This document shows, in pieces, positions 2,327 through 64,000 of a stretch of 64,000 nt of DNA. Below the pieces are notes generated by a model. It worked only from the letters and a program-made list of their open reading frames with translations, was not told the origin of the DNA and searched no databases. Numbering within the stretch: position 1 is the first letter of the stretch; every line of letters starts with the position of its first letter. The stretch lies in the NCBI GenBank assembly GCA_951406725.2, contig OX597814.1, positions 121,024,001 to 121,088,000 of the forward strand, given 5' to 3'. A program made the translations under genes and the position numbers. The stretch comes from Octopus vulgaris (Eukaryota).

Positions 2327-2537
2327 GGCCTCTTGGAGCTAATCAGCGACAGTTTTAGTCTTATATTTATAGATTACCATATTAGTATGGCGATAACTAT
2401 TATTATCCAGTAACGCTGCCGTAATCTCCTTTAGAGAGACTTAGTAATTTTAATATTTCTATTATTGAAAACAAGTGGATGTATTCCACTGTAACTAGGT
2501 AAATAAAATCTTCGAACAGACGGTCAGTAGCGACACC
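2327..2537 (+). repeat. Retrozyme-like ~360-bp tandem unit, partial copy A
   Basis: GGCCTCTTGGAGCTAATCAGCGACAG...GTAACGCTGCCGTAATCTCC recurs at 4424-4528 and 6278-6417. The copy ends in TCAGTAGCGACACC. Confidence 0.8.
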
Positions 2538-4259
2538 CGCTTTTTGTTTTTGGTGACAGATATTTCTGATTGCGTTATTGTTGTGTAGCTGTATTTTTTG
2601 GCGTCGGAAAAATTTTGACTACGTTATTGTGGTGTAGCGGTTCGTGAGATCGAATCCGGTGGTGGAAGTTGTTACGGCGTGGTGAAGTTTTTGAGATTTT
2701 TTCACGAAAATGGAGACCCAGACGTATGCGGGTGCAGCAGGCAAGGGCCTGGTTGCGAAGGAGTTGCAGTTAGAAGAAGTCATCGTCGAGAAGGAGACTT
2801 TGAACAAGTATTTCGACAGCTTGAAGAGGGAGGTTGACTGTGTGAAGGTCACACCACCCGAAGAAGAAGCGGAAGAAGCGGAGAAACGGATTATAACGTA
2901 CAAAACATGGACCGTGACTTCGAAGAAAATAGAAGTGGCACCGATAGAGGAAGTTGAATGCTGTCTTAAAGGAATAGAAGCAGAGTCTACCTACTATAAC
3001 AGAGGTAGAAAGTTCGCAACGGTGGTCGTCCACTTTAAAAGTGAAGACGAGGCGAAGAAGAACGCAACGAAAATTTTAAAAACTGATAGATGGATGTGTT
3101 TACCAAGCTACTGCGGGAAAAGGGCAGTCAGAATAAGAATAAGCAAGATTTCGCCCGAACTAAATATGGAAAGGATTTTAGCAGCAGTGGTGTTTAATTG
3201 CAAAGAAAACGTGGAAATGTTGAAAGTCGAAAAATCAAAAGATGTAAATTGGTGGGGTTATGCAGTGCAGGCGTTAGTCCACATTACAATGCCTGACCTG
3301 TATAACATCCCGGAGGAGTTGGTGTTCCCCGACGAGACACGTCTCAGAGACGTGGTGGAGGGGAGACCCTCAGTGTGTCACAAATGCAAAATAAGAGGCC
3401 ACATGAAGGATGTGTGTCCGCTGAGAGAAGAACAGGAGAAAACGATAGTACTGGAGACTTTAACGAATGAGTTGCAAGATGCGTGTGTGGAGGAGGGAGA
3501 AATCGTTACTATAGATAATGCGGAAAGTGGTGAAGAGTTGGAGAGAGAAAATAGAAAAAGAACGCGGGTGGAATCACCACCCAAAGAACAAAAAAAGAAG
3601 AAGAAAAAAGCGAAAAACAAGATTACTGACGAGAAGGAAAACCGAACGGGAGAAGAGGATACAAAAGCAGAAGTGAGTGAACCGCTAAAAGCAGTTGAAG
3701 AATGGGACAGAAAATTGAAACAGCAGTTGAAAGCTTGTAAGAGAGGAGGAGGACTCAAGGGAAAGAAACACAGAGTGGCAATGTTATACGACAAGGACTT
3801 AAATTTGGAAAAGATGTTGCCAGGTAGGAAAGACTTAATTAGAGTAAAGTTGACCCCAGGAATATTTGATAAATATTGGAAGGCGGTAATAGTGGAGAAA
3901 GAGACGGTACGCAAATTGAAGGAATATAGCGCATTTGAATGGTTATATTTACGTTATGACACCTTACCAGCTGATGTGGATCAAGAAGGCTTACTAGAGT
4001 ATATAACAGACGAAAGACCAGTCTATGCTGACGAGTACCCGACGTAGCAGAGTAATATATGTAATTGTAAAATTGTAAATTGTGAAATTGTAATTTAAAT
4101 GAAACTGCGAGCTTTGGGGGGCTCGTAAGCCGTTCCATCTCATCCATTATAAATATCCATTTCAATTCATAATTTTCGATTTTTTTACTTTATGTACCCC
4201 ACGTCCTGTCTTGTAATGTCCCCTCTTAATTCGGGCCTTAGTGCCTATAATAAAGATTT
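2538..4259 (+). mobile_element. ORF1-only (non-autonomous) Tx1/L1-like retroelement, copy 1
   Basis: Flanked by direct repeat (T)CAGTAGCGACACC at 2524-2537 and 4259-4272. Contains a single ORF, a 3' UTR ending ...CCTATAATAAAGATT, and no RT or endonuclease. Confidence 0.7.
2710..4047 (+). CDS. Tx1/L1-type ORF1p (Gag-like nucleic-acid-binding protein, RRM-like region plus CCHC zinc knuckle), 445 aa
   Basis: Uninterrupted ORF. IPEELVFPDETRLRDVVEGRPSV-CHKCKIRGHMKDVC is Cx2Cx4Hx4C in a Tx1/ZCCHC3-like context. Basic NLS-like stretch RKRTR...KKKKKK. Confidence 0.8.
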   Translation: METQTYAGAAGKGLVAKELQLEEVIVEKETLNKYFDSLKREVDCVKVTPPEEEAEEAEKRIITYKTWTVTSKKIEVAPIEEVECCLKGIEAESTYYNRGRKFATVVVHFKSEDEAKKNATKILKTDRWMCLPSYCGKRAVRIRISKISPELNMERILAAVVFNCKENVEMLKVEKSKDVNWWGYAVQALVHITMPDLYNIPEELVFPDETRLRDVVEGRPSVCHKCKIRGHMKDVCPLREEQEKTIVLETLTNELQDACVEEGEIVTIDNAESGEELERENRKRTRVESPPKEQKKKKKKAKNKITDEKENRTGEEDTKAEVSEPLKAVEEWDRKLKQQLKACKRGGGLKGKKHRVAMLYDKDLNLEKMLPGRKDLIRVKLTPGIFDKYWKAVIVEKETVRKLKEYSAFEWLYLRYDTLPADVDQEGLLEYITDERPVYADEYPT

Positions 4260-4539
4260 CAGTAGCGACACCTGCGGGTCTGACTACGCTGCATTGATAA
4301 AGGGCAACAAACATGAAACATGTCTGCAGATGTCTGACTAGCAAGATGAAGCGGCTGACCTCCCCTGTTCGAAGGTTTGTAATGGACGCAGGTTCGTGTG
4401 TCATATAGCTAGCTAGAGGCGGTGGCCTCTTGGAGCTAATCAGCGACAGCTTTAGTCTTATATTTATAAGACTGCCATATTAGTATGGCGATAACTATTA
4501 ATATCCAGTAACGCTGCCGTAATCTCCTAGGTAAATAAA
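4260..4539 (+). repeat. Retrozyme-like unit, copy B (deleted at its 3' end)
   Basis: Highly similar to 6117-6417 and 2327-2505. Contains a hammerhead. Confidence 0.8.
4289..4329 (+). ncRNA. Type I hammerhead ribozyme, U3-A8 core variant, stem II damaged
   Basis: CTGCA-TTGATAA-AGGGC AACA AACAT-GAAAC AT GTC^TGCAG. Stem I is CTGCA/TGCAG. Stem II has three mismatches relative to the 6144 copy. Confidence 0.7.
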
Positions 4540-6116
4540 GCGTTATTGTTGAGTCGAAGTTGTGAGATCGAATTCGTTGGTGGAAGCGTTTGCGGCGCTG
4601 GGAATTTTTTTCTCAAAAATGCAAACCCAAACGTATGCGGGAGCGGCAGGCAAGGGCCTGGCTGCGAGCGAACTACAGTTGGAAGAAGTTACAGTCAAGA
4701 AGGAGATTTTGAAGAATTATTTCGACAGCTTGAAGAGAGAAGGTGACTGTGTGAGGATCACACCACCTGAAGAAGAAGAAGCGAAAGATTCAGAGAAACG
4801 TATTATAACATACAGAACGTGGAACGTGACTTCAAAGAAAGTAGAAGTGGCACCGATAGAGGAAATTGAGCGCTGTCTGAATGGAGTTGAAGGAGAACCT
4901 ACTTTCTATAATAGAGGTAGAAAATACGCAACAGTGGTCGTTCATTTTAAAAACGAAGACGAAGCGAAGAAGAACGCCACGCAAATACTGAACACAGAAA
5001 AATGGATGTTATTACCAAGTTATCGTGGAAAAAGGGCAGTAAGAATACGAATCAGTAAGATTTCGCCGGAGCTGAACATGGAAAGAATCTTAGCGGCAGT
5101 GGTATTCAACTGCAAAGAAAGCGTTGAAATATTGAAAGTAGAAAAATCGAAAGATGTACAGTGGTGGGGTTATGCGGTGCAGGCTTTGGTTCATATAACC
5201 ATACCAGACCTGTATAACATCCCAGAGGAGTTGGTGTTCCCCGACGAGACTCGACTCAGAGTCGTGGTGGAGAGGAGACCACCAGTGTGCTACAAGTGTA
5301 AAATTAGAGGCAACATGAAAGATGTGTGTCCGACGAGAATATTGGAAGCTCTGACAGAGATATTGCAAATGGCAGATGAAAAATGTGTAAACACAGAAAA
5401 TGAGGAAAGTGGTGACGAGTTGGAGAAAGGAATGGAAAACACAGAAGGAAAAGTAGATAGAAAGAGAGCGAGGGTGCAATCACCACCTAAAGTTCAAAAA
5501 AAGAAAAAAGCTAAAAATAAGACAATAGACGAGATGGAAGATCGAACGTGCGAAGATAAGAATACAAAAGCGAAAGCGAGAGAACCGGCAAATTTAACGG
5601 CAGACCAAGAATGGGGAAGAAGAGTGAAAGAGAAGTTAAAAGTATGTAAGGAAGGAAGAAGACCCGAAGGAAAAAAATCTTAAGGTAGTAATATTGTATA
5701 TGAAAGACAAAGAAATCGAAAAAAGACTGGCAGCTAAGAAAGGTTTAATCAGGGTTAGGCTGAATCCAAAAATATTTGATGACCAAGTGAAGTCGGCGGT
5801 TGTAGAGAAAGAGACATTTATAAAATTGAAAAGTGTGTTTTCGACTGTTTGTGAAATGCAATATATCCGTTATGACAGTTTGCCAGCGATTGTAGACCAG
5901 GAGAAGTTAATAGAATACATTACAGATGAACGCTCAGTATAGCAGAACTGTATTTTAAATGAAACTACGAGTTTTGGGGGGCTCGTAAGCCATTCCATTT
6001 AATTCATTACAAATAATTCATTTTCATATTTTTCGATTTCTTAAATTTATGTACCCCATGTCCTATTTTGTAATATCACCTCTTAATTCGGGCCATCGTA
6101 CCTATAATAAAGATAA
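4540..6116 (+). mobile_element. ORF1-only Tx1/L1-like retroelement, copy 2 (5'-shortened)
   Basis: Paralogous to 2538-4259. Same 3' end (CCTATAATAAAGAT) abutting TAGCGACACC of the next repeat unit. Confidence 0.7.
4619..5942 (+). pseudogene. Second ORF1p paralogue. One +1 frameshift in an A7 run (~5671-5677), and knuckle His replaced by Asn.
   Basis: MQTQTYAGAAGKGLA... aligns with copy 1. Knuckle reads CYKCKIRGNMKDVC. ORF 5694-5942 matches the copy 1 C-terminus (RYDSLPAIVDQEKLIEYITDER). Confidence 0.8.
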
Positions 6117-6412
6117 TAGCGACACCTGCGGGTCTGACTATGGTGCATTGATAAAGGGCAACAGCCCTGAAACATGTCTGCAGATGTCTGACTAGCAAGG
6201 TGAAGAGGCTGACCTCCCCTGTTCGAAGGTTTGTAATGGACGCAGGTTCGTGTGTCAAATAGCTAGCTAGAGGCGATGGCCTCTTGAAGCTAATCAGCGA
6301 CAGCTTTAGTCTTATATTTATAGACTACCACATTAGTATGACGGTAACTATTAATATCCAGTAACGCTGCCGTAATCTTCTTTAGAGAGACTTAGTAATT
6401 TTAATATTTCTA

Positions 6413-6417
<5 letters not shown>
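6117..6417 (+). repeat. Retrozyme-like unit, copy C, ending in (TA)n
   Basis: Direct repeat of 4263-4528 and 2327-2465. Confidence 0.8.
6144..6182 (+). ncRNA. Type I minimal hammerhead ribozyme, U3-A8 variant, apparently intact
   Basis: TGCA-TTGATAA-AGGGC AACA GCCCT-GAAAC AT GTC^TGCA. Perfect 5-bp stem II, palindromic ACATGT stem III, GUC cleavage triplet (cut after 6178). Confidence 0.85.
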
Positions 6418-8596: not shown

Positions 8597-10025
8597 CAGG
8601 CGGTGTCCTCCACTATCCATGATCGCATCTCCTCCTCCCGTCCCCCCACCGCCTCCAACCTCATTGTCCGCACCACTCGCACCCCCACAATAACCTAACA
8701 ACCCTGATCGCCCCAGCATCTCCTACAACTGCCCCACCGAACTCATCTCCAGATATCTTGACCGTGTCCTTGACCCCTAGCGGCTTCCCTCCTCTCTCAC
8801 ATCTATGACACCAACCATGCTCGTCGTCTATTCAGCCCTTTCTCCGTCCCTCCAGGCCCCTCTAAACTTCTCTTCACTCTTGACATCAAGAGACTATACA
8901 CAGTGATCCCTCACCACGAGGTGCTTCGGGCACTCCATCACTACCTTGATCTTCGACCCAATCCTCAACCTGACACATCCACACTTCTTCGTCTGGCCGA
9001 ACTTGTTCTCTCGCTTGACTGCTCGTTCACGGGTGATTTTTACCAGCAGGTTTCGGGTGTGTCCATGAGATCGAGAATGGGCCCCAACTATGCGAACATG
9101 CTCGTTGGCTACGTTGAGGCCCAAATATTCTTAAGTTTCACTGGCCCCACTCCCGAATAATACGGTCGTCATATTGACGACGGTATTGGTGCGACCTCAC
9201 TCTTCTGCGAAGAACTAGCCTTCTTCCTCTCTTTTGTCAAATATTTCCATCCTGCCCTCCACTTCTCCTGCACTATTTCCAACACTTCCGTCGCCTTTCT
9301 CGATATTTCGGACAGCATTCATCACTGCACTCTCACTACCTCTATGTACTACAAACACGCAAATACCTCAACTTCTCCTCCTCCCACCCTAAATACACTA
9401 ATCTCTCTATCTACTATTCCCAATTATTCCATCTGCGCAGGCTCTGCAGTGACAACCATGACTTTGAGACTCAATCTCAACTCCTGGCTCGCTACTTCAT
9501 CCTACGTGGGTATCCCCTCACCACTATCCACACCGCCCTTGCAAGAGCGTTTTGCGTAGACCGTGCATCTGCTCTCTACCCTCGCACCCCCCGTCACTCG
9601 TCTCCCGTTTCCCATTACCTACCACCCCTCTACCCTGCCTCTCTAATGCACATTTTCTGAGCCTTCCAGTGATTCCAGTTCGACCCCCCCACTTTGCACA
9701 TCTTCTCTAACCGACTCAGCCCCTCCTTCAAACGAACCCACAACATACGTGATCTCCTGGTCCACAGTTTCTACCCAAACCCAACCTCCCCAACCGGCTC
9801 GTTCTCCTGCTCTCGCCCACGCTGGAGCACTTGCCCTTACCTCTCCAACACCACCATCCTCAAAGGCACCCATCATCGACCCTATAATATCACTGACTCC
9901 TTCACCAGCACTTCTAACAAGGTCATCTACTGCATCACCTGCTCTCTCTGTCCTTCTCTGAACATCGGCCAAATGGGACGCCGCTTGGCTGACCGGCTCG
10001 CGAAAGACCTCCGAGACATTTCCGC
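8597..10025 (+). mobile_element. Degenerate Penelope-like element (Neptune-like): RT plus GIY-YIG
   Basis: LLRLAELVL...YQQVSGVSMRSRMGPNYAN (PLE RT). CSRPRWSTC, then VIYCITCSLC...IGQMGRRLADRL (GIY-YIG). Multiple stops and frameshifts. Confidence 0.85.
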
Positions 10026-10069
10026 ATGTATGTATACGTATACATGTATATACGTATACATACCAGTTT

Positions 10070-12150
10070 CTCAAAATTTCCATCAGGGATTCAATAAATT
10101 TGTTGTCTGCTTGTTCTTCGGGTATATTAAGGAAAATTTGTATAAATAAATTCTCGTTTGAAGCCCCTTTCTATATCTCCAGGTTGAGTTATGTATGTTG
10201 TACTATGAACCTGTGCCTTGGCCTTTTAGATGGTACAACCAGGGTCTGTGCAATTATATTTCGGGCTGTCATCTCTCATCATAACCATTAGGCTTGCTTG
10301 AGTCACTGCACCAGCATTGTGCAGTTTAACCCCATGGTGACGTTATTTTTTTTATCAGGCCATTCGGTTGCACTGATGTCACTCAGCAATTAATGCAAGA
10401 AAATGGTTCGGCGTATATGTACGTGGACCGCTGTAAATCATGCACAGTTTTTTTAATATAAACTGTCATCACTGGGAGGACCATAAATTTAACGAAACTG
10501 GCCTAGCTGGATGCGACTGTAAATCCCATGAAGGACCACAAGATTTTGCTGAACCTTTACAAATTTGGTAGCAAACCTTAGTGGAAATGGTGGTGTAACA
10601 GCCAAATCTATTGCTTTTATATTATTATGGCGATGAAGTTTCGATCTGTGGTTATGAGGAAGCGCTGGGAGGTACGTGGTGGATAATAGGTTGCGGTCTA
10701 AAAATGCATTGGCGCCTCTGATGTAAATCTTCTATACCCAGTTAAACGGGCATATAATAGAGAAAGACATTCTCAGAGGTAATATGTTACAGTGAGGTAA
10801 TAGTGAGAAATATTTACATGAAGATTCTAACAAACCTATCGAATTCCTTGAAATTTGCACGGTGGCCTCTGTTATCGATTGCATGAGTGATGGCGGATAT
10901 TTATATCAATGGTACACAAATAAGTAGAAAACCGCAGCAGATAGGGCTGCGTATATTATCATCATCGGATTCAAAGCGACTAAACAACTCGCGTAAATTT
11001 ACGTCAACCGATGTTAAGGGGTTAATGGACGCGGCAAAATTTTCTGCTAAAATAGCTAACATTCAGAGATCTTCCTTTGAATATTCTATAATACTTGCAG
11101 TGCCTGGGGAAAATGTCATGATAATAAATTCTAAACATCATCTAGCTAGATTAGTCTTAACGCCTTTTAATTTTGACGAGTTGAACTCCAAAGCAAATCT
11201 AGTTCCAGTTTTCTTTTTTTTTTGAGAACTTTTGCTGTTATCTACACTACCAACATATGGAAGATATGCTCTGGAAATCCTCTGTTACAGAGTATGCCAT
11301 TATATTAAGAAGAGATATTGTTAAAAGCCATATCATTACTAACCATGTATTTTAGTATGAAGGATGGATATGTGAAAGCATCATTAGCATATAATAGCTT
11401 TCCGTTATGTTTACTATAAAGCCTGACGGTTACAGAAAGCAGATCAAATTTCATATCTAATATTCATGCCAAAGGTTGCTTTGAAATTCATACGCTGGAT
11501 GAATAAAATATGATACTTTTTAAGGCTCTTGAGATAATGCACATTGATTTTTCCATTGATGATAAGGTTGTCATCCTTGTATAGACCGGCTTCTGCAAAA
11601 AGGGGATTCTGTATGCGAACAATATAGGTAGGTATCGGCCTTGGCAAAAAATATGTGACTATTGGTGACTCAGACATTGGATTTTGTTACTGAAGTGTAA
11701 ATGTCCACGCTCTAAAATTGAGTATACTTTCAGTTTTATTTAGAATTCCTTTTTCTTTAACCAGTCTATAACAGACTTGTTATTAGTCTATCATGGGAGA
11801 TTTACTACGTTTTTATTCCTAAGGAAAATGGAATCTAAGTTATTTCTATACTAATTTCTAATTAACTTTTAGATTGGTTAATAAGCAACTAAAGTCAGCT
11901 TTGTTCTCCTTAAGACTAATAAAAGTTTTTTGCGGTGGAATTTACCCTCCTGTATCGCGAGAAATTCGGTTAGTAAGGATTATTTTTCCTTCTAGATTCC
12001 CCTCGTTATATAAAACACTTATCCGTATCCTTAATATTGTTAGAGAGGAACCAGATATAAAGGCATCACTATACACGATTTTTATCTTGCCCGAAGGTAC
12101 AGCTATTTTGTTAGTGTTTAGCATGAAATTAGGCTTTCCTTGAGTGTTCT
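10070..12150 (-). mobile_element. Highly degenerate Penelope-like element, probably Naiad-type
   Basis: Minus-strand remnants: FISLKENKADF...INQSKS (cf. FITLKDHK..F...LINPAKS), GLYKDDNL (cf. GLYRDDGL), YSKHNGKLLY, and GIY-YIG-like remnants near 10100-10250. Confidence 0.55.
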
Positions 12151-34493: not shown

Positions 34494-35175
34494 ATATTAT
34501 TAGTGAATTGAAGAAATGGAGTTGAACGAAGATTGAACAGAAATCGTTTTATTGCATTCTGCGTTCGCGAACCGACTGGCCCGGACGCGACGGCGTGCCG
34601 CCGCCGGGCTCGCGCGGGCCGAGCCGACCGGGTCACCGCCGCCGCTCCGCAACCGACGCCGCAACCACGCCGCGACCGCCCCCGCGAGGTGGACGGCAGC
34701 CGGACGCGGCCGCAGCACCGGACGCGAAGGAGAGCGGTGGCAACGGCAAGCCCGGGCCGCGCGCGGAGCTACCGACGACGGCTTCGGCGCCGCTGCGCTA
34801 CCGGAAAAGCACTAATCGACGATTAGCGCGTCGATTAGTGCTTTTCCGGTAGCGCGGCGGCGCCGAAGCCGTCGTCGGTAGCTCCGCGCGCGGCCCGGGC
34901 TTGCCGTTGCCGCCGCTCTCCTTCGCGTCCGGCGCTGCGGCCGCGTCCGGCGCTGCGGCCGCGTCCGGCTGCCGTCCGCCCTCGCGGGGGCGGTCGCGGC
35001 GTGGTTGCGGCGTCGGTTGCGGAGCGGTGGCGGTGACCCGGTCGGCTCGGCCCGCGCGAGCCCGGCGGCGGCACGCCGTCGCGTCCGGGCCAGTCGGTTG
35101 GCGAACGCAGAATGCAATAAAACGATTTCTGTTCAATCTTCGTTCAACTCCATTTCTTCAATTCACTAATAATAT
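34494..35175. repeat. GC-rich fold-back element, arms ~330-350 bp, 7-nt loop (34822-34828)
   Basis: The arms are near-perfect reverse complements from TATTATTAGTGAATTGAAG to GCACTAATCGACG. Confidence 0.95.
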
Positions 35176-35357: not shown

Positions 35358-36059
35358 CATATATGAACCGGATCCTTGAAACACATACCATCATTAAAAG
35401 TAAACGGCAACCAAAATCCTTGAAAAGGATTTTAACCCAAGCTACACTGCACTCAACATCAACCACAAAACCAGCAGTTAGAAAATGTGGAAGGCCCACC
35501 CTCGGAATCTGTGTCATCTTGAAAGAAGGATCAGAATTTATACTGGAACAAGGCCACCAGTTCACCATTAGAACAAACTTCACCTGCGCATCAGAAAACT
35601 TAATTTACGTCATAACATGCGCAGGCTGCAATAGGCAGTATATAGGCCATACAAAAAATAGCTTACGTAACAGGATGGCGGTGCATAAATCACAAATTAG
35701 AAACCCTGATTACCGCAAAATACCGGTCAGCGGACACATAGATAGATGTGCTGGAAATGTAAATCCGAACTTTACAACTAACCCGCTCTATAAATTCAGT
35801 GACAACGCAACCTTCACACAACGCCAAAATAAAGAACTATATTTCATAAAAAAATTTAGACCAAGTTTAAACACCCTGGGCCAGGAATACTAAAACAAAA
35901 GATAAGTCCTCCGAAAAGGAGAAGCAAAATTCCACCACGACCGCTACTTTAAACAGACACTCGCTCTGACGGAAATATGCCTTAGTAAAAAAAGGAAAAA
36001 AATTCTTTCGTGCAAATCTGACCCTGATACATACGATACAGCTAAGGGTCAGACCCGAT

Positions 36060-36490
36060 TCTGATTGGTCAACAAGTTGATGACGTCTAGCTCTGCTAGA
36101 ATGGACAGGATACAAACAGAGGACAGTCATTAGTCAGAATATTGATGACGTCCTTTTCTGCTTGACTAGTCACCTAACAAGTACAGACAGGGGGCAGATC
36201 TAATGTAGCTATAAGTCGTGATTGGGCAGAATCTTGACTAACGAAGCGACTGGTCAAAACAGGAAACAAACAAGAGGCAGTTATAATGCAGCGATTGGTC
36301 AACATGATGATGACGTCCCGTTCTGCTTGACTAAAGCCACCTAACGAAACGATTGGTCAAAACGTTGATGACGTCACGCTACGCTGGATTGACCACCTAA
36401 CAGGCATTATAAAACCGAGCACTTTACAAAACTCACTAGAACCACCCAGCGAACATCCACCATGGGTCATCACAATTGCTTAAGGTAAAA
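36060..36490 (+). promoter_or_regulatory. Candidate Pol II promoter in the PLE pLTR
   Basis: Repeated ATTGG (CCAAT) plus TGACGTC modules, perfect CRE at 36369-36376, TATAAAA at 36408, TCACT initiator at ~36433, CCACCATGG at 36457-36465, AAG|GTAAAA at 36484/5. Confidence 0.6.
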
Positions 36491-36748
36491 ATGAATTCCT
36501 CGCTCTTTCGGAAACATCAATCTTCTGTATTGACCGCTTTCCACCACTTTGATCTGTTTTTTGTATTGAATACGTATCGCCACCGTGGGCCACTGCATCG
36601 AACACTTTGAACATATAGTATGAATGAACTTACTTCAAACTATATATCAACTATACATGAACTCTAAGATGTCTGACTCCGTTGTGTATTATAAATGAAT
36701 TTCTTGTGTTTGACGGCATGAGCTGTCTTTTTTTATATATAACTTTTT

Positions 36749-36783
36749 TTGATAAGGTTCATTTCAGGAACTGAAACATGTTA
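36749..36783 (+). ncRNA. Hammerhead-like motif with U3-A8 core in the PLE 3' end (stem I weak)
   Basis: TTGATAA-GGTTC ATTTCAG GAACT-GAAAC AT GTT. Confidence 0.5.
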
Positions 36784-36844
36784 TAATGTATATATAAAAA
36801 TTAAAAATTGTATAATACAGCAGCATTTTCGAACTTCATTTTTT

Positions 36845-36893
<49 letters not shown>

Positions 36894-53779: not shown

Positions 53780-54086
53780 TGTATTTTTGTATTTTTATAC
53801 GTGCTACATCACCTGTTTTTCCGTTCTTGTTTTCGTATACATTCGATGCTTTTTTCCAAGGAATCTAATGCTCTTAGTTTAGTTTTTTTTCTTGGGGCTG
53901 GCTAGATTGGAGCAATCTGAAGGTTAATCAGCCGAAATTGCGAGGATGATCCGGTTCTTGACTGAGGATAAACAGCTTCGAATGACCCGTCCTTGTTTTT
54001 CTTTTATATCGTCTATCTGGATGTTTTGTTGTCCCCTTTTTGTATCACCTAGTTGTACGGATGTTTTGCGTTCTTGTCCCAATTTG

Positions 54087-54125
<39 letters not shown>

Positions 54126-54128
<3 letters not shown>

Positions 54129-54290
54129 GCAGGAGTAGCTGTGTGGTAAGTAGCTTGTTTACCAACCGCATGCTTTCGGGTTCAGTCCCACTGCGTGGCA
54201 CCTTGGGCAAGTGTCTTCTACTATAGCCTCGGGCCGACCAAAGCCTTGTGAGTGGATTTGGTAGACGGAAACTGGAAGAAGCCAGTCGTG
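54126..54290 (+). mobile_element. SINE head (duplicated at 57895-58056)
   Basis: GGCAGGAGTAGCTGTGTGGTAAG...GGGTTCAGTCCC. Confidence 0.88.
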
Positions 54291-54329
<39 letters not shown>

Positions 54330-54849
54330 GTGTGAGTGTGTGTGTGTGTGTGCGTGTGTGCGCGCGTGTGTGTGTGTATGCATATATGTATATACATAAA
54401 TACACGCATACATATACGCATATATACACACACACATACATACATACATACATACATACATACATACATACATACAATACAATACAAAGATATTCTTGAG
54501 TGACAGTTGGAAATAGACGTTTGAGAGTAAAGAATTTCAGATGATATGTTTTTAGGCAATAGCTATTACTAAATGCAAAAAAAAAAATCTAAGTGGAAAA
54601 GAATAATCGTATCGATCGGGGAAAGCTTAAAAAGTATGCAAAAATGTACATGTAGTTATAGAGAGAATAAGGATTGCATTGGCCTCTTAAATTGTCATGG
54701 GATAATGAATATTTTAATGGAATGTGTAAGATCAGCAAACAGTACAAGAAATACATGCTGTTTGTTCCATACTAAGGGATAAATAAATCATATTTAATTA
54801 TACTATGCAGCACACATAGACGCACACCAGCATGTACAAACACAGATAC

Positions 54850-57452
<2,603 letters not shown>

Positions 57453-57795
57453 ACATAAGGGGGATCAGCCATCTGAATGTGGCTAGGGTCAGGGCGGGGT
57501 GGTGGGGGTGTTACTGATGCATTTAGCGCCAGGCGAACATCAACGTATACGTTGATGCTTTTTTCCAAGGAATCTAATGCTCTTAGTTTAGTTTTTTTTC
57601 TTGGGGCTGGCAAGATTGGAGCAATCTGAAGGTTAATCAGCCGAAATTGCGAGGATGATCCGGTTCTTGACTGAGGATAAACAGCTTCGAATGACCCGTC
57701 CTTGTTTTTCTTTTATATCGTCTATCTGGATGTTTTGTTGTCCCCTTTTTGTATCACCTAGTTGTACGGATGTTTTGCGTTCTTGTCCCAATTTG

Positions 57796-57836
<41 letters not shown>

Positions 57837-57847
57837 TGAATTGAAGA

Positions 57848-57897
<50 letters not shown>

Positions 57898-58056
57898 GCA
57901 GGAGTAGCTGTGTAAGTAGCTTGTTTACCAACCGCATGCTTTCGGGTTCAGTCCCACTGCGTGGCACCTTGGGCAAGTGTCTTCTACTATAGCCTCGGGC
58001 CGACCAAAGCCTTGTGAGTGGATTTGGTAGACGGAAACTGGAAGAAGCCAGTCGTG

Positions 58057-58095
<39 letters not shown>

Positions 58096-58101
58096 GTGTG
58101 A

Positions 58102-58140
<39 letters not shown>

Positions 58141-58614
58141 TATGCATATATGTATATACATAAATACACGCATACATATACGCATATATACACACACACA
58201 TACATACATACATACATACATACATACATACATACATACAATACAATACAAAGATATTCTTGAGTGACAGTTGGAAATAGACGTTTGAGAGTAAAGAATT
58301 TCAGATGATATGTTTTTAGGCAATAGCTATTACTAAATGCAAAAAAAAAATCTAAGTGGAAAAGAATAATCGTATCGATCGGGGAAAGCTTAAAAAGTAT
58401 GCAAAAATGTACATGTAGTTATAGAGAGAATAAGGATTGCATTGGCCTCTTAAATTGTCATGGGATAATGAATATTTTAATGGAATGTGTAAGATCAGCA
58501 AACAGTACAAGAAATACATGCTGTTTGTTCCATACTAAGGGATAAATAAATCATATTTAATTATACTATGCAGCACACATAGACGCACACCAGCATGTAC
58601 AAACACAGATACAT

Positions 58615-60221
<1,607 letters not shown>

Positions 60222-60302
60222 TCCCGGGTTGATTCGGGGTTAACCACAGTAAGTAAGGTACTCAATACATAGCAGAGTAAAATTAATTTATTATATAGAA
60301 GG

Positions 60303-60353
60303 AGCTTCTACAGGACTAGTACTGTTTCATTCAAGAGAAATCTTCAGGAAGCT
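60303..60353 (-). ncRNA. Type I hammerhead ribozyme with full stem III
   Basis: Reverse complement of 63268-63318. Confidence 0.85.
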
Positions 60354-60737
60354 ATTTAACAAGAATTGTATTAGCATTTATACATTTAGAGGAGTGGTGG
60401 TGGGGGACTTTTTGGGGGTAGGCATAGCGCAAAATATCATACTTGGGGGGAGTGGTCAAGGTAATAAAAAAAATAAAAAAATAAAAAATAAAAAAAAAAA
60501 TAAAAGAATAAAAATAAAAAATATAAAAAATATAAAAAATATAAAAAATATAAAAAATATAAAAAATATATATAAAAAAATATATAAAAAAATATATATA
60601 TATAAAATATATATATAAAATATATATATATAAAAAAAAGGGGGGAAAGAGTTATAGGTAAATAAGGAGATTCTCACTTATACCTATACACACATGAATA
60701 CGTATCTACACACACATACGCACATACACATATATCT

Positions 60738-60794
<57 letters not shown>

Positions 60795-61172
60795 CCTACA
60801 CATACACACATACATACATACAAATATACATATACATACATATATATACAATCCAATACAGGCCCATTCCCTAATTTTAATTTTATTATCTTCATTTATT
60901 ACTTTTGTTATCTTTGATCGCTAAGGCTAAGAATCCTGGCAATAGCTGCTTGTCCGTTTGTCTGTCTACTAGAAGGCAAGTACTCATTCCCGCACGCACA
61001 CTCATTAGCACGTACATTCACCCATTCGTACACTCATACACATACACGTACGCACGCGTTATATTCATACATACAAACATCTACATACGTTCACGTATAT
61101 ACACATACGTACTCGTACCTACAGATTCGTGTCTACACTTTAGGAGGCTAGTCTATACATATACACCAATAA

Positions 61173-61204
<32 letters not shown>

Positions 61205-61254
61205 CGCACATACATACACACACACACATATATACTCCTACATACAGATACATA

Positions 61255-61304
<50 letters not shown>

Positions 61305-61730
61305 TATATACATACATACACATACATACACATACACACATACACACATACACACACATACATACACATATATATACATACCCAAACATATATACACACG
61401 CATATATATACATACACACATACACACATGTATATATATGTATATATGCATGCGTATGTGTATGTACATGTAGGTATGTATGTGTGTATATGTATATATG
61501 TCTATAAATGTGAGTATGTAGTAATATAAGTATATGCATGTGTATGTATGGGTATGTGTATCAGTGTATATGTATATATGTATATGTGTGTGTGTATGTA
61601 TATGTATGTATATGTGTATATATGTATGCGTATATGTGTATATATATATATATGTATATATATATATGTGTATATGTGTGTGTACGTATGTGTATGTGTA
61701 TGTATGTGTATATGTGTCTATGTATGTATA

Positions 61731-61796
<66 letters not shown>

Positions 61797-62075
61797 TGCG
61801 TGTGTGTATGTATGCATATATGTATGTATGCATGTATATGTGTATGTATATATATGTGTGTAAGTGTGTGCATATATGTATTTGTAAGTATGTGTGCGCG
61901 TATGAGTATGTATGTATGCTTGCACACGTGTATATATATATGTGTGTGTGTGTATTTATATGGATGCGCGTGCGTGTGTGCACGTGTATGGGTACGCATG
62001 TATATGTGTATGTGCGTGTATGCGTATACGTGTATGTATGTATGTGTGTGCGTAGATTTGTATATGTATGTGTGA

Positions 62076-62114
<39 letters not shown>

Positions 62115-62324
62115 TATAGATGGGTGTGTGTATGCGTATAAATGCATGTAAGTATGGATGTATAGATGTATGTATGTATGTATACGTATGTATGTGTGTA
62201 TGTGTGTATGTATATATATGCGTGTGTATATATGTTTGGGTATGTATATATATGTGTATGTATGTGTGTGTATGTGTGTATGTGTGTATGTGTATGTATG
62301 TGTATGTATGTATATATATATGTA

Positions 62325-62368
<44 letters not shown>

Positions 62369-62827
62369 TATGTATCTGTATGTAGGAGTATATATGTGTG
62401 TGTGTGTATGTATGTGCGGGTATATATATATATATATATATATGTATATTTATTGGTGTATATGTATAGACTAGCCTCCTAAAGTGTAGACACGAATCTG
62501 TAGGTACGAGTACGTATGTGTATATACGTGAACGTATGTAGATGTTTGTATGTATGAATATAACGCGTGCGTACGTGTATGTGTATGAGTGTACGAATGG
62601 GTGAATGTACGTGCTAATGAGTGTGCGTGCGGGAATGAGTACTTGCCTTCTAGTAGACAGACAAACGGACAAGCAGCTATTGCCAGGATTCTTAGCCTTA
62701 GCGATCAAAGATAACAAAAGTAATAAATGAAGATAATAAAATTAAAATTAGGGAATGGGCCTGTATTGGATTGTATATATATGTATGTATATGTATATTT
62801 GTATGTATGTATGTGTGTATGTGTAGG

Positions 62828-62884
<57 letters not shown>

Positions 62885-63267
62885 AGATATATGTGTATGT
62901 GCGTATGTGTGTGTAGATACGTATACATGTGTGTATAGGTATAAGTGAGAATCTCCTTATTTACCTATAACTCTTTCCCCCTTTTTTTTATATATATATA
63001 TTTTATATATATATTTTATATATATATATTTTTTTATATATTTTTTTATATATATTTTTTATATTTTTTATATTTTTTATATTTTTTATATTTTTTATAT
63101 TTTTTATTTTTATTCTTTTATTTTATTTTTTTATTTTTTATTTTTTTATTTTTTTATTACCTTGACCACTCCCCCAAGTATGATATTTTGCGCTATGCCT
63201 ACCCCCAAAAAAGTCCCCCACCACCACTCCTCTAAATGTATAAATGCTAATACAATTCTTGTTAAAT

Positions 63268-63318
63268 AGCTTCCTGAAGATTTCTCTTGAATGAAACAGT
63301 ACTAGTCCTGTAGAAGCT
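63268..63318 (+). ncRNA. Type I hammerhead ribozyme with full stem III
   Basis: AGCTTC-CTGAAGA-TTTC TCTT GAAT-GAAACAG TACTAGTC CTGTA^GAAGCT, with AATAAA ~10 nt downstream. Confidence 0.85.
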
Positions 63319-63329
63319 CCTTCTATATA

Positions 63330-64000
<671 letters not shown>

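Follow-up and report, generated by a model that had tools for sequence, protein, structure and literature searches.

A probably impaired U3-A8 hammerhead in an octopus retrozyme that hosts ORF1-only LINE derivatives

Two motifs with the hammerhead core UUGAUAA and its U3-A8 pair lie 1,854 nt apart on the forward strand of a 64,000-nt stretch of the Octopus vulgaris genome (the window; contig OX597814.1, positions 121,024,001–121,088,000), with protein-coding sequence between them. The locus raises the question of which element owns the ribozymes, and whether the intervening gene is part of that element or a guest in it. We consider it quite probable that the motif at 6144–6182 is a likely impaired hammerhead of a non-coding 362-nt retrozyme, likely pasted by Penelope-like elements (PLEs), and that two one-gene LINE derivatives sit at a likely transcription start within that repeat.

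Every letter of the core, GAAAC, the cleavage site and the palindromic loop III was located where an earlier sequence-only reading had placed it. The core occupies 6148–6154, followed by a helix at 6155–6159/6164–6168 and GAAAC at 6169–6173, and the ACAUGU palindrome at 6172–6177 encloses a 2-nt loop, with C17 at 6178 and a predicted 5′-OH at 6179. Stem I extends beyond the span first given, with 6 bp, an internal loop and a 3-bp helix, and the type I hammerhead spans 6136–6188 (+), with a predicted cut at 6178/6179. The conserved core with its 3-8 pair and an NUH site are present, as are three helices, of which stems I and II covary and stem III is invariant at two pairs but palindromic. The motif is a genuine hammerhead. 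A descriptor combining the U3-A8 core, a stem II of at least 4 bp and a palindromic stem III matched the window at 6148 and 36749 and had no match in 100 dinucleotide shuffles; no Rfam hammerhead model reached its gathering score in the window or matched any of six loci at E up to 1.

The 5-bp stem II originally assigned to this copy turned out to be private to it. The family has a 4-bp stem II with a 6-nt loop (5–6 nt across 18 aligned homologues), and position 6164, the last loop-II base, is A in 66 of 68 sampled copies and G in the 6144 copy alone, where it creates the fifth pair. Position 6143, in stem I, is likewise C in 66 of the 68 and G in this copy alone, costing one pair, and predicted stem I pairing drops from about 0.92 to 0.47. 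Because of the loop-II change and the lost stem I pair, the 6144 copy is likely impaired, and its fifth stem II pair is likely damage. Nor does the description 'minimal' fit, since the internal loop, the invariant loop-II A and a stem I of full length are all retained in the family. The copy with its core at 4294, previously listed at 4289 and thought probably dead, is indeed broken: two of its four stem II pairs are lost (4311, 4313), and predicted stem II pairing is ∼0, compared with ∼1.0 in an intact copy. The idea that the two copies make a working tandem pair finds no support, as 1,854 nt and a nested LINE derivative lie between them and one is broken, the other mutated.

The U3-A8 core had also been called rare. 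In a genome count that left positions 3, 7 and 8 free, however, 204 of 207 exact family cores carry it, a looser U3-A8 plus ACAUGU pattern has 2,317 genomic matches compared with 111 for a reversed control, and Cervera and de la Peña described about 1,300 U3-A8 motifs among PLE hammerheads of S. mansoni (PMC4209133). The core is an already described variant; the family that carries it here is new, its class known.

That reading had named a lack of stem covariation among genomic copies as one sign against it; such covariation was found in an alignment of 18 representatives hand-picked from 57 distinct descriptor matches. In the homologues, stem I has 6 bp and is joined by an internal loop to a helix of 3 bp, stem II has 4 bp, and stem III is palindromic; both sides have changed in 13 of 16 pairs, and 98.3% of cells are paired (28–52% in slid controls), figures inflated by a descriptor that demands pairing and by the mutual relatedness of the homologues. 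The 3-8 pair is C-G in seven, U-A in seven and U-G in four of the 18, in agreement with its proposed compensatory nature, and this series suggests evolution via wobble. A sister retrozyme family (L046, L050–L053, L083) has C at position 4 throughout (CCGAUGA, CCGACGA).

G5, A6, A9, G12, A13, A14, A15.1 and U16.1 are invariant in all 18 homologues, partly because the descriptor imposes them, and loop bases outside the descriptor, including the last loop-II A, are invariant as well. We take this A to participate in the type I loop-loop contact. Such contacts are made by type I hammerheads (PMC6155905), and the invariant loop bases are consistent with them. Both sets of invariant bases argue against a non-cleaving relic retained solely as a protein-binding fold, a reading that we hold to be highly unlikely even though the 3′ ends of retrozyme copies avoid the cut site, sister families tolerate C4 and U3-G8 cores, and PLE minimal hammerheads are described as cleaving weakly in vitro (PMC4209133).

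Ten different stem III sequences, of 4, 6 and 8 nt, are all perfect palindromes, which makes the suggested cleavage as dimers plausible, and such cleavage has been published for hammerheads with palindromic stem III (PMC6765202). The ACAUGU duplex with its flanks is predicted at about −6 kcal/mol, and in the predicted monomer the core mispairs and stem III does not form. The Cercyon PLE hammerheads of S. mansoni, as described in PMC4209133, are alike in core covariation, dimer architecture and the occurrence of opposite-strand pairs; they are minimal, with a long helix II and a short helix I, whereas the octopus hammerhead belongs to a non-coding repeat and combines a helix II of 4 bp with a helix I of 6 bp that has an internal loop.

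When the 2.8-Gb genome was searched with a query of 181 nt, 1,779 candidates emerged at first look, 40 of which were scored. Cores in tandem copies are spaced 358–362 nt apart at five loci (L006, L061, L067, L110, L111), with one hammerhead per unit, and empty monomers exist, giving the short non-coding tandem monomer of a non-LTR retrozyme; the circular monomer is predicted to self-pair (z = −6.6 vs 100 shuffles). The window holds a 5′-truncated upstream monomer (2327–2540), a copy bearing the broken hammerhead (4260–4528, core 4294–4300), and a copy that runs from the insertion point to the preferred 3′ end at monomer position ∼237 and then into (TA)n (6117–6417), all on the forward strand.

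Among 30 position-ordered copies (L112–L114 being a single array), 22 end at monomer position 177–179 or 234–237, mostly into (TA)n, 20 contain inverted pieces, and none ends at the hammerhead cut site. The repeat thus has copies that are truncated or inverted at the 5′ end, forms partial tandems, ends at fixed internal 3′ positions and targets (TA)n, as expected of a PLE-mobilised element; such insertion ends are described as PLE traits (PMC8557442), and internal priming is known for PLEs (PMC11167929). We conclude that the repeat is a non-coding retrozyme with PLE-type ends, likely pasted by Penelope-like enzymes. Contigs from four presumed-RNA runs cover the repeat and the junction between its head-to-tail units, as well as parts of the LINE-derived cassette described below, and show no start, cut or circle; three of the four lack a single-copy stretch that a larger run covers, and two of these three have deep coverage of an unrelated repeat too. 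A short repeat at 10807–10909 likewise has high contig depth in two presumed-RNA runs.

Metazoan non-LTR retrozymes, as described in PMC7229834 and bioRxiv 10.64898/2026.07.22.740005, are similar in their non-coding tandem monomer of ∼300–400 nt, their type I hammerhead with a short stem III, their self-paired circle, predicted for the octopus repeat, and the PLE proposed as helper. Compared with them, the octopus repeat differs in having U3-A8 throughout, mostly dispersed partial tandems, inverted 5′ ends and a role as LINE target. The main text of PMC7229834 does not mention octopus, and its supplements could list cephalopod motifs; a term search of the main text of a recent octopus repeat annotation (PMC13282606) found no ribozyme named.

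A candidate helper lies in the same window. A 5′-truncated copy of a young PLE occupies 35366–36850, with a GIY-YIG region at 35366–35890, and its family has at least 150 matches at 94–100%, many of which keep open a frame of 781 aa that encodes RT and GIY-YIG. About 70 nt from its 3′ end is a minimal hammerhead-like motif (36749–36782, +) with the same U3-A8 core and ACAUGU; its stem I is weak, and its stem II differs between sister families in sequence but remains paired. The one PLE family compared with the retrozyme monomer showed no significant similarity (best blastn E 2.7), and a 12-nt match between them, considered as homology, was rejected as chance level. As the two have no further significant sequence in common, the young PLE is no more than a candidate helper of the retrozyme. 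The locus itself is not an autonomous PLE, since the ORF between its hammerhead repeats is ORF1-like rather than RT plus GIY-YIG, and no ORF of the latter kind was found within the repeat arrays at L061–L084.

The window has several further features. Inverted repeats lie at 34494–35175, and the 36749 motif overlaps what looks like a 3′ splice site, a U-rich tract with a terminal AG. The region 8774–10030 contains decayed frames of Penelope-like RT and GIY-YIG-like type, and the descriptor found no hammerhead there, and a 283-aa fragment of a LINE reverse transcriptase frame lies at 1–1310 (−). The region 53834–63335 contains long (TA)n tracts together with direct and inverted duplications that are nearly identical (98–100%), possibly an assembly artefact or a recent rearrangement.

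Two copies of a cassette of 1.6–1.7 kb, with one ORF each, lie upstream of the 4294 hammerhead and between the two hammerheads, respectively. The first (2541–4259, +) has an intact 445-aa ORF at 2710–4047 with a CCHC knuckle at aa 223–236, and terminates 5 nt past its AATAAA (4249–4254) without a poly(A) tail; it is flanked by a 16-bp duplication whose left copy (2525–2540, +) has one mismatch to the right copy (4260–4275). The second (4540–6116, +) has an ORF at 4619–5942 with a frameshift near 5680 and a His-to-Asn change in the knuckle, and an AATAAA at 6106–6111. At the corresponding site, 23 of the 30 position-ordered retrozyme copies are empty, one holds a cassette and six are truncated or otherwise arranged. 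The cassette ORF has at least 97 genomic matches, and its dN/dS is 0.09 against a distant cassette and 0.42 and 0.51 against two close copies, which differ by few changes. It matched no Pfam family at cut-off, nothing in a word-indexed protein search and nothing in the Atlas, and a HMMER library search returned 335 unnamed relatives; a single-sequence AlphaFold model reached a pLDDT of 34.

A LINE in a sister retrozyme (L069), next to a cassette with which it forms a tandem, carries ORF1 and ORF2 and has a 15-bp duplication; the identity between its ORF1 and the cassette ORF of the window is 27% (E 4e-17). The ORF2 of this lineage combines APE, RT and a C-terminal zinc motif (zf-RVT), as identified by Pfam in the L076 family and by motif reading in L069, and we presume that it belongs to the Tx1 clade. 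From the ORF1 homology to a full LINE and the APE, RT and zf-RVT domains of a related family, we classify the cassette as a HAL1-like LINE derivative of the ORF1-only kind, with an ORF1 homologue, a LINE-type 3′ end, a target duplication and no ORF2. HAL1, HeT-A and Ag-Sponge, as described in PMC5786205, likewise combine one ORF1-like protein with a LINE-type 3′ end and lack RT; the octopus cassette differs from them in its origin from a site-specific APE LINE, its lack of poly(A), its nesting in a retrozyme and its occasional movement with that retrozyme. The L076 LINE family was considered as the partner of the cassette and rejected, as the majority of its 30 copies are followed by a repeat of another kind.

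Related arrangements were seen elsewhere in the genome. Head-to-tail arrays at L072–L075 (C4) contain at least five ORF1-only cassettes ∼1.8 kb apart; they lie behind TATA-like promoters and have no hammerheads. The APE-RT LINEs of L115–L144 form a very young family; their 1132-aa frames are intact, and they occupy one fixed point of a non-hammerhead repeat. At L037 (3030–3150) a cassette precedes a hammerhead-like motif whose stem II is very long and whose cleavage site would be AUA, and at L078 (3676–5569) a protease-RT-RNase H frame of an LTR retroelement lies ∼1.1 kb downstream of a cassette that may be located where the LTR of this retroelement starts.

The point at which the cassettes enter the repeat resembles a transcription start. 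A 10-nt motif at 2474–2483 (+) is identical to one 56–57 nt upstream of U2 snRNA genes: it stands at −56/−57 in one U2 gene class and at −55 or −51 from the junction in the repeat, and the second U2 class has a different upstream sequence. We infer that it is an snRNA-type promoter element; it also falls within a hairpin of the retrozyme RNA. There are 210 cassette-type 3′ ends; among the first 30, 19 are situated 20–38 nt before a hammerhead core, three at a target start only and eight elsewhere, and the downstream hammerheads belong to several families. Thirty autonomous relatives were placed as well, 19 before a hammerhead repeat, four at U2 position 1 (confirmed for two of the four as position 1 of the Rfam model), five before a target start plus another element and two at other sites; a cassette at L202 is also inserted at U2 +1. 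Since other cassette subfamilies lie behind TATA-like motifs without a hammerhead, and another LINE family targets an unrelated repeat, targeting is not hammerhead-specific. The LINEs probably insert at transcription starts, with the hammerhead as a likely bystander.

The match to start sites might instead be incidental, with the LINEs recognising short ATCG/AGCG-like DNA or annealing the ends of read-through RNA, a reading that we regard as possible but not probable. Several targets, U2 among them, do start alike, each subfamily stays on related targets, and the polyadenylation signal lies just 3–9 nt ahead of the duplication, so RNA 3′ ends would carry target sequence; co-transcription with the target is moreover said to strengthen specific integration (PMC4494074). 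However, the duplicated sequences differ widely between families, and their spacing from the upstream motif, or from TATA-like boxes, is constant, both of which favour insertion at transcription starts.

Known Tx1-clade targets include Tx1D for Tx1 and U2 for Keno, and Tx1-Mar is a further member (PMC4494074); as described there, these are likewise APE-RT LINEs that enter another mobile element or U2 genes. The octopus LINEs differ in targeting a hammerhead retrozyme and in having close relatives that use both the retrozyme and U2 position 1. Newt satellite 2 (PMC2220036, citing Coats et al. 1994) offers a parallel as a satellite that carries a hammerhead and, internally, a Pol II promoter of snRNA type, demonstrated there and only inferred in the octopus retrozyme. 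A search of the main texts of openly accessible papers found no literature on LINEs in retrozymes and none pairing 'retrozyme' with 'Tx1'.

The second cassette is joined to the repeat differently. At 4516–4541 (+) a double deletion has removed the promoter-like motif and the duplication, fusing repeat to cassette, and this junction recurs at exactly four genomic loci with different flanks. The copies in the window, C10 and C15 end at the preferred 3′ ends of the repeat. Immediately upstream of the C15 copy comes an inverted 5′ arm with (TA)n at its boundary, and nothing is left of a target there; C9 stops after the duplication without a downstream hammerhead. Given recurrence at four loci, three of them with PLE-type ends, the fusion has likely moved as one coding unit, with repeat and cassette copied together via the retrozyme route as a low-copy coding state. 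An R2-like, ribozyme-defined 5′ end of the fusion was rejected, as no copy starts at the cut site (three other loci viewed).

These copies bear on whether the 1.85-kb interval between hammerheads is itself the element, that is, a protein-coding retrozyme or PLE derivative with ribozymes in its terminal repeats. The recurrent junction, the repeat-type 3′ ends of three copies and the inverted arm of C15 would fit such a unit, as would two near-intact hammerheads 1,844 nt apart at L061. Against it stand the 23 of 30 empty repeat copies, cassettes that have duplications, form hammerhead-free head-to-tail stacks and occupy many repeat families plus U2, and a fusion with just four copies, no promoter-like motif of its own and, in C9, no downstream hammerhead. 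We therefore judge this reading quite unlikely as an account of the locus, and at most a secondary, low-copy state; the 1.86-kb hammerhead spacing is not the retrozyme unit. A coding retrozyme with LTR-like ends was also dropped as the main explanation, given the duplications and empty sites.

For the non-coding retrozyme with LINE guests, the following cycle can be envisaged. A monomer-internal snRNA-type promoter would initiate RNA ∼60 nt before the cut site; two hammerheads are predicted to pair via ACAUGU and cut after C17, and the unit-length RNA would be circularised as in other retrozymes. A PLE RT/GIY-YIG protein may then prime at two internal sites and write more-than-unit, 5′-truncated or inverted copies into (TA)n, where the scars are observed and the enzyme is putative. 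APE-type LINEs and their ORF1-only derivative enter the presumed start site with 12–18 bp duplications, presumably because this would give them the promoter. Finally, a cassette within the repeat could be copied along with it, as the four-locus fusion suggests.

A bolder extension, which we think unlikely as a whole, is a three-layer parasite, in which an APE LINE would target snRNA-type starts by position and not by sequence, and could thus move between U2 genes and hammerhead retrozymes, the fused ORF1-only derivative would be a PLE-moved, hammerhead-bounded coding unit, and retrozyme and PLE ribozymes would cut each other in trans as heterodimers, hence their common core and ACAUGU.

On present sequence evidence the nested LINEs are a new variation on known kinds of system, with a putative mechanism. 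For hammerhead surveys, the U3-A8 core means that CUGANGA descriptors overlook >2,000 motifs in the octopus genome, and at the 3-8 pair the homologous families provide a natural series of C-G, U-G and U-A that lends itself to assays. A LINE that lands at snRNA-type start sites would be of interest for targeted insertion, and the nesting is relevant to two further questions, how site-specific LINEs select and change their targets and which enzyme moves animal retrozymes.
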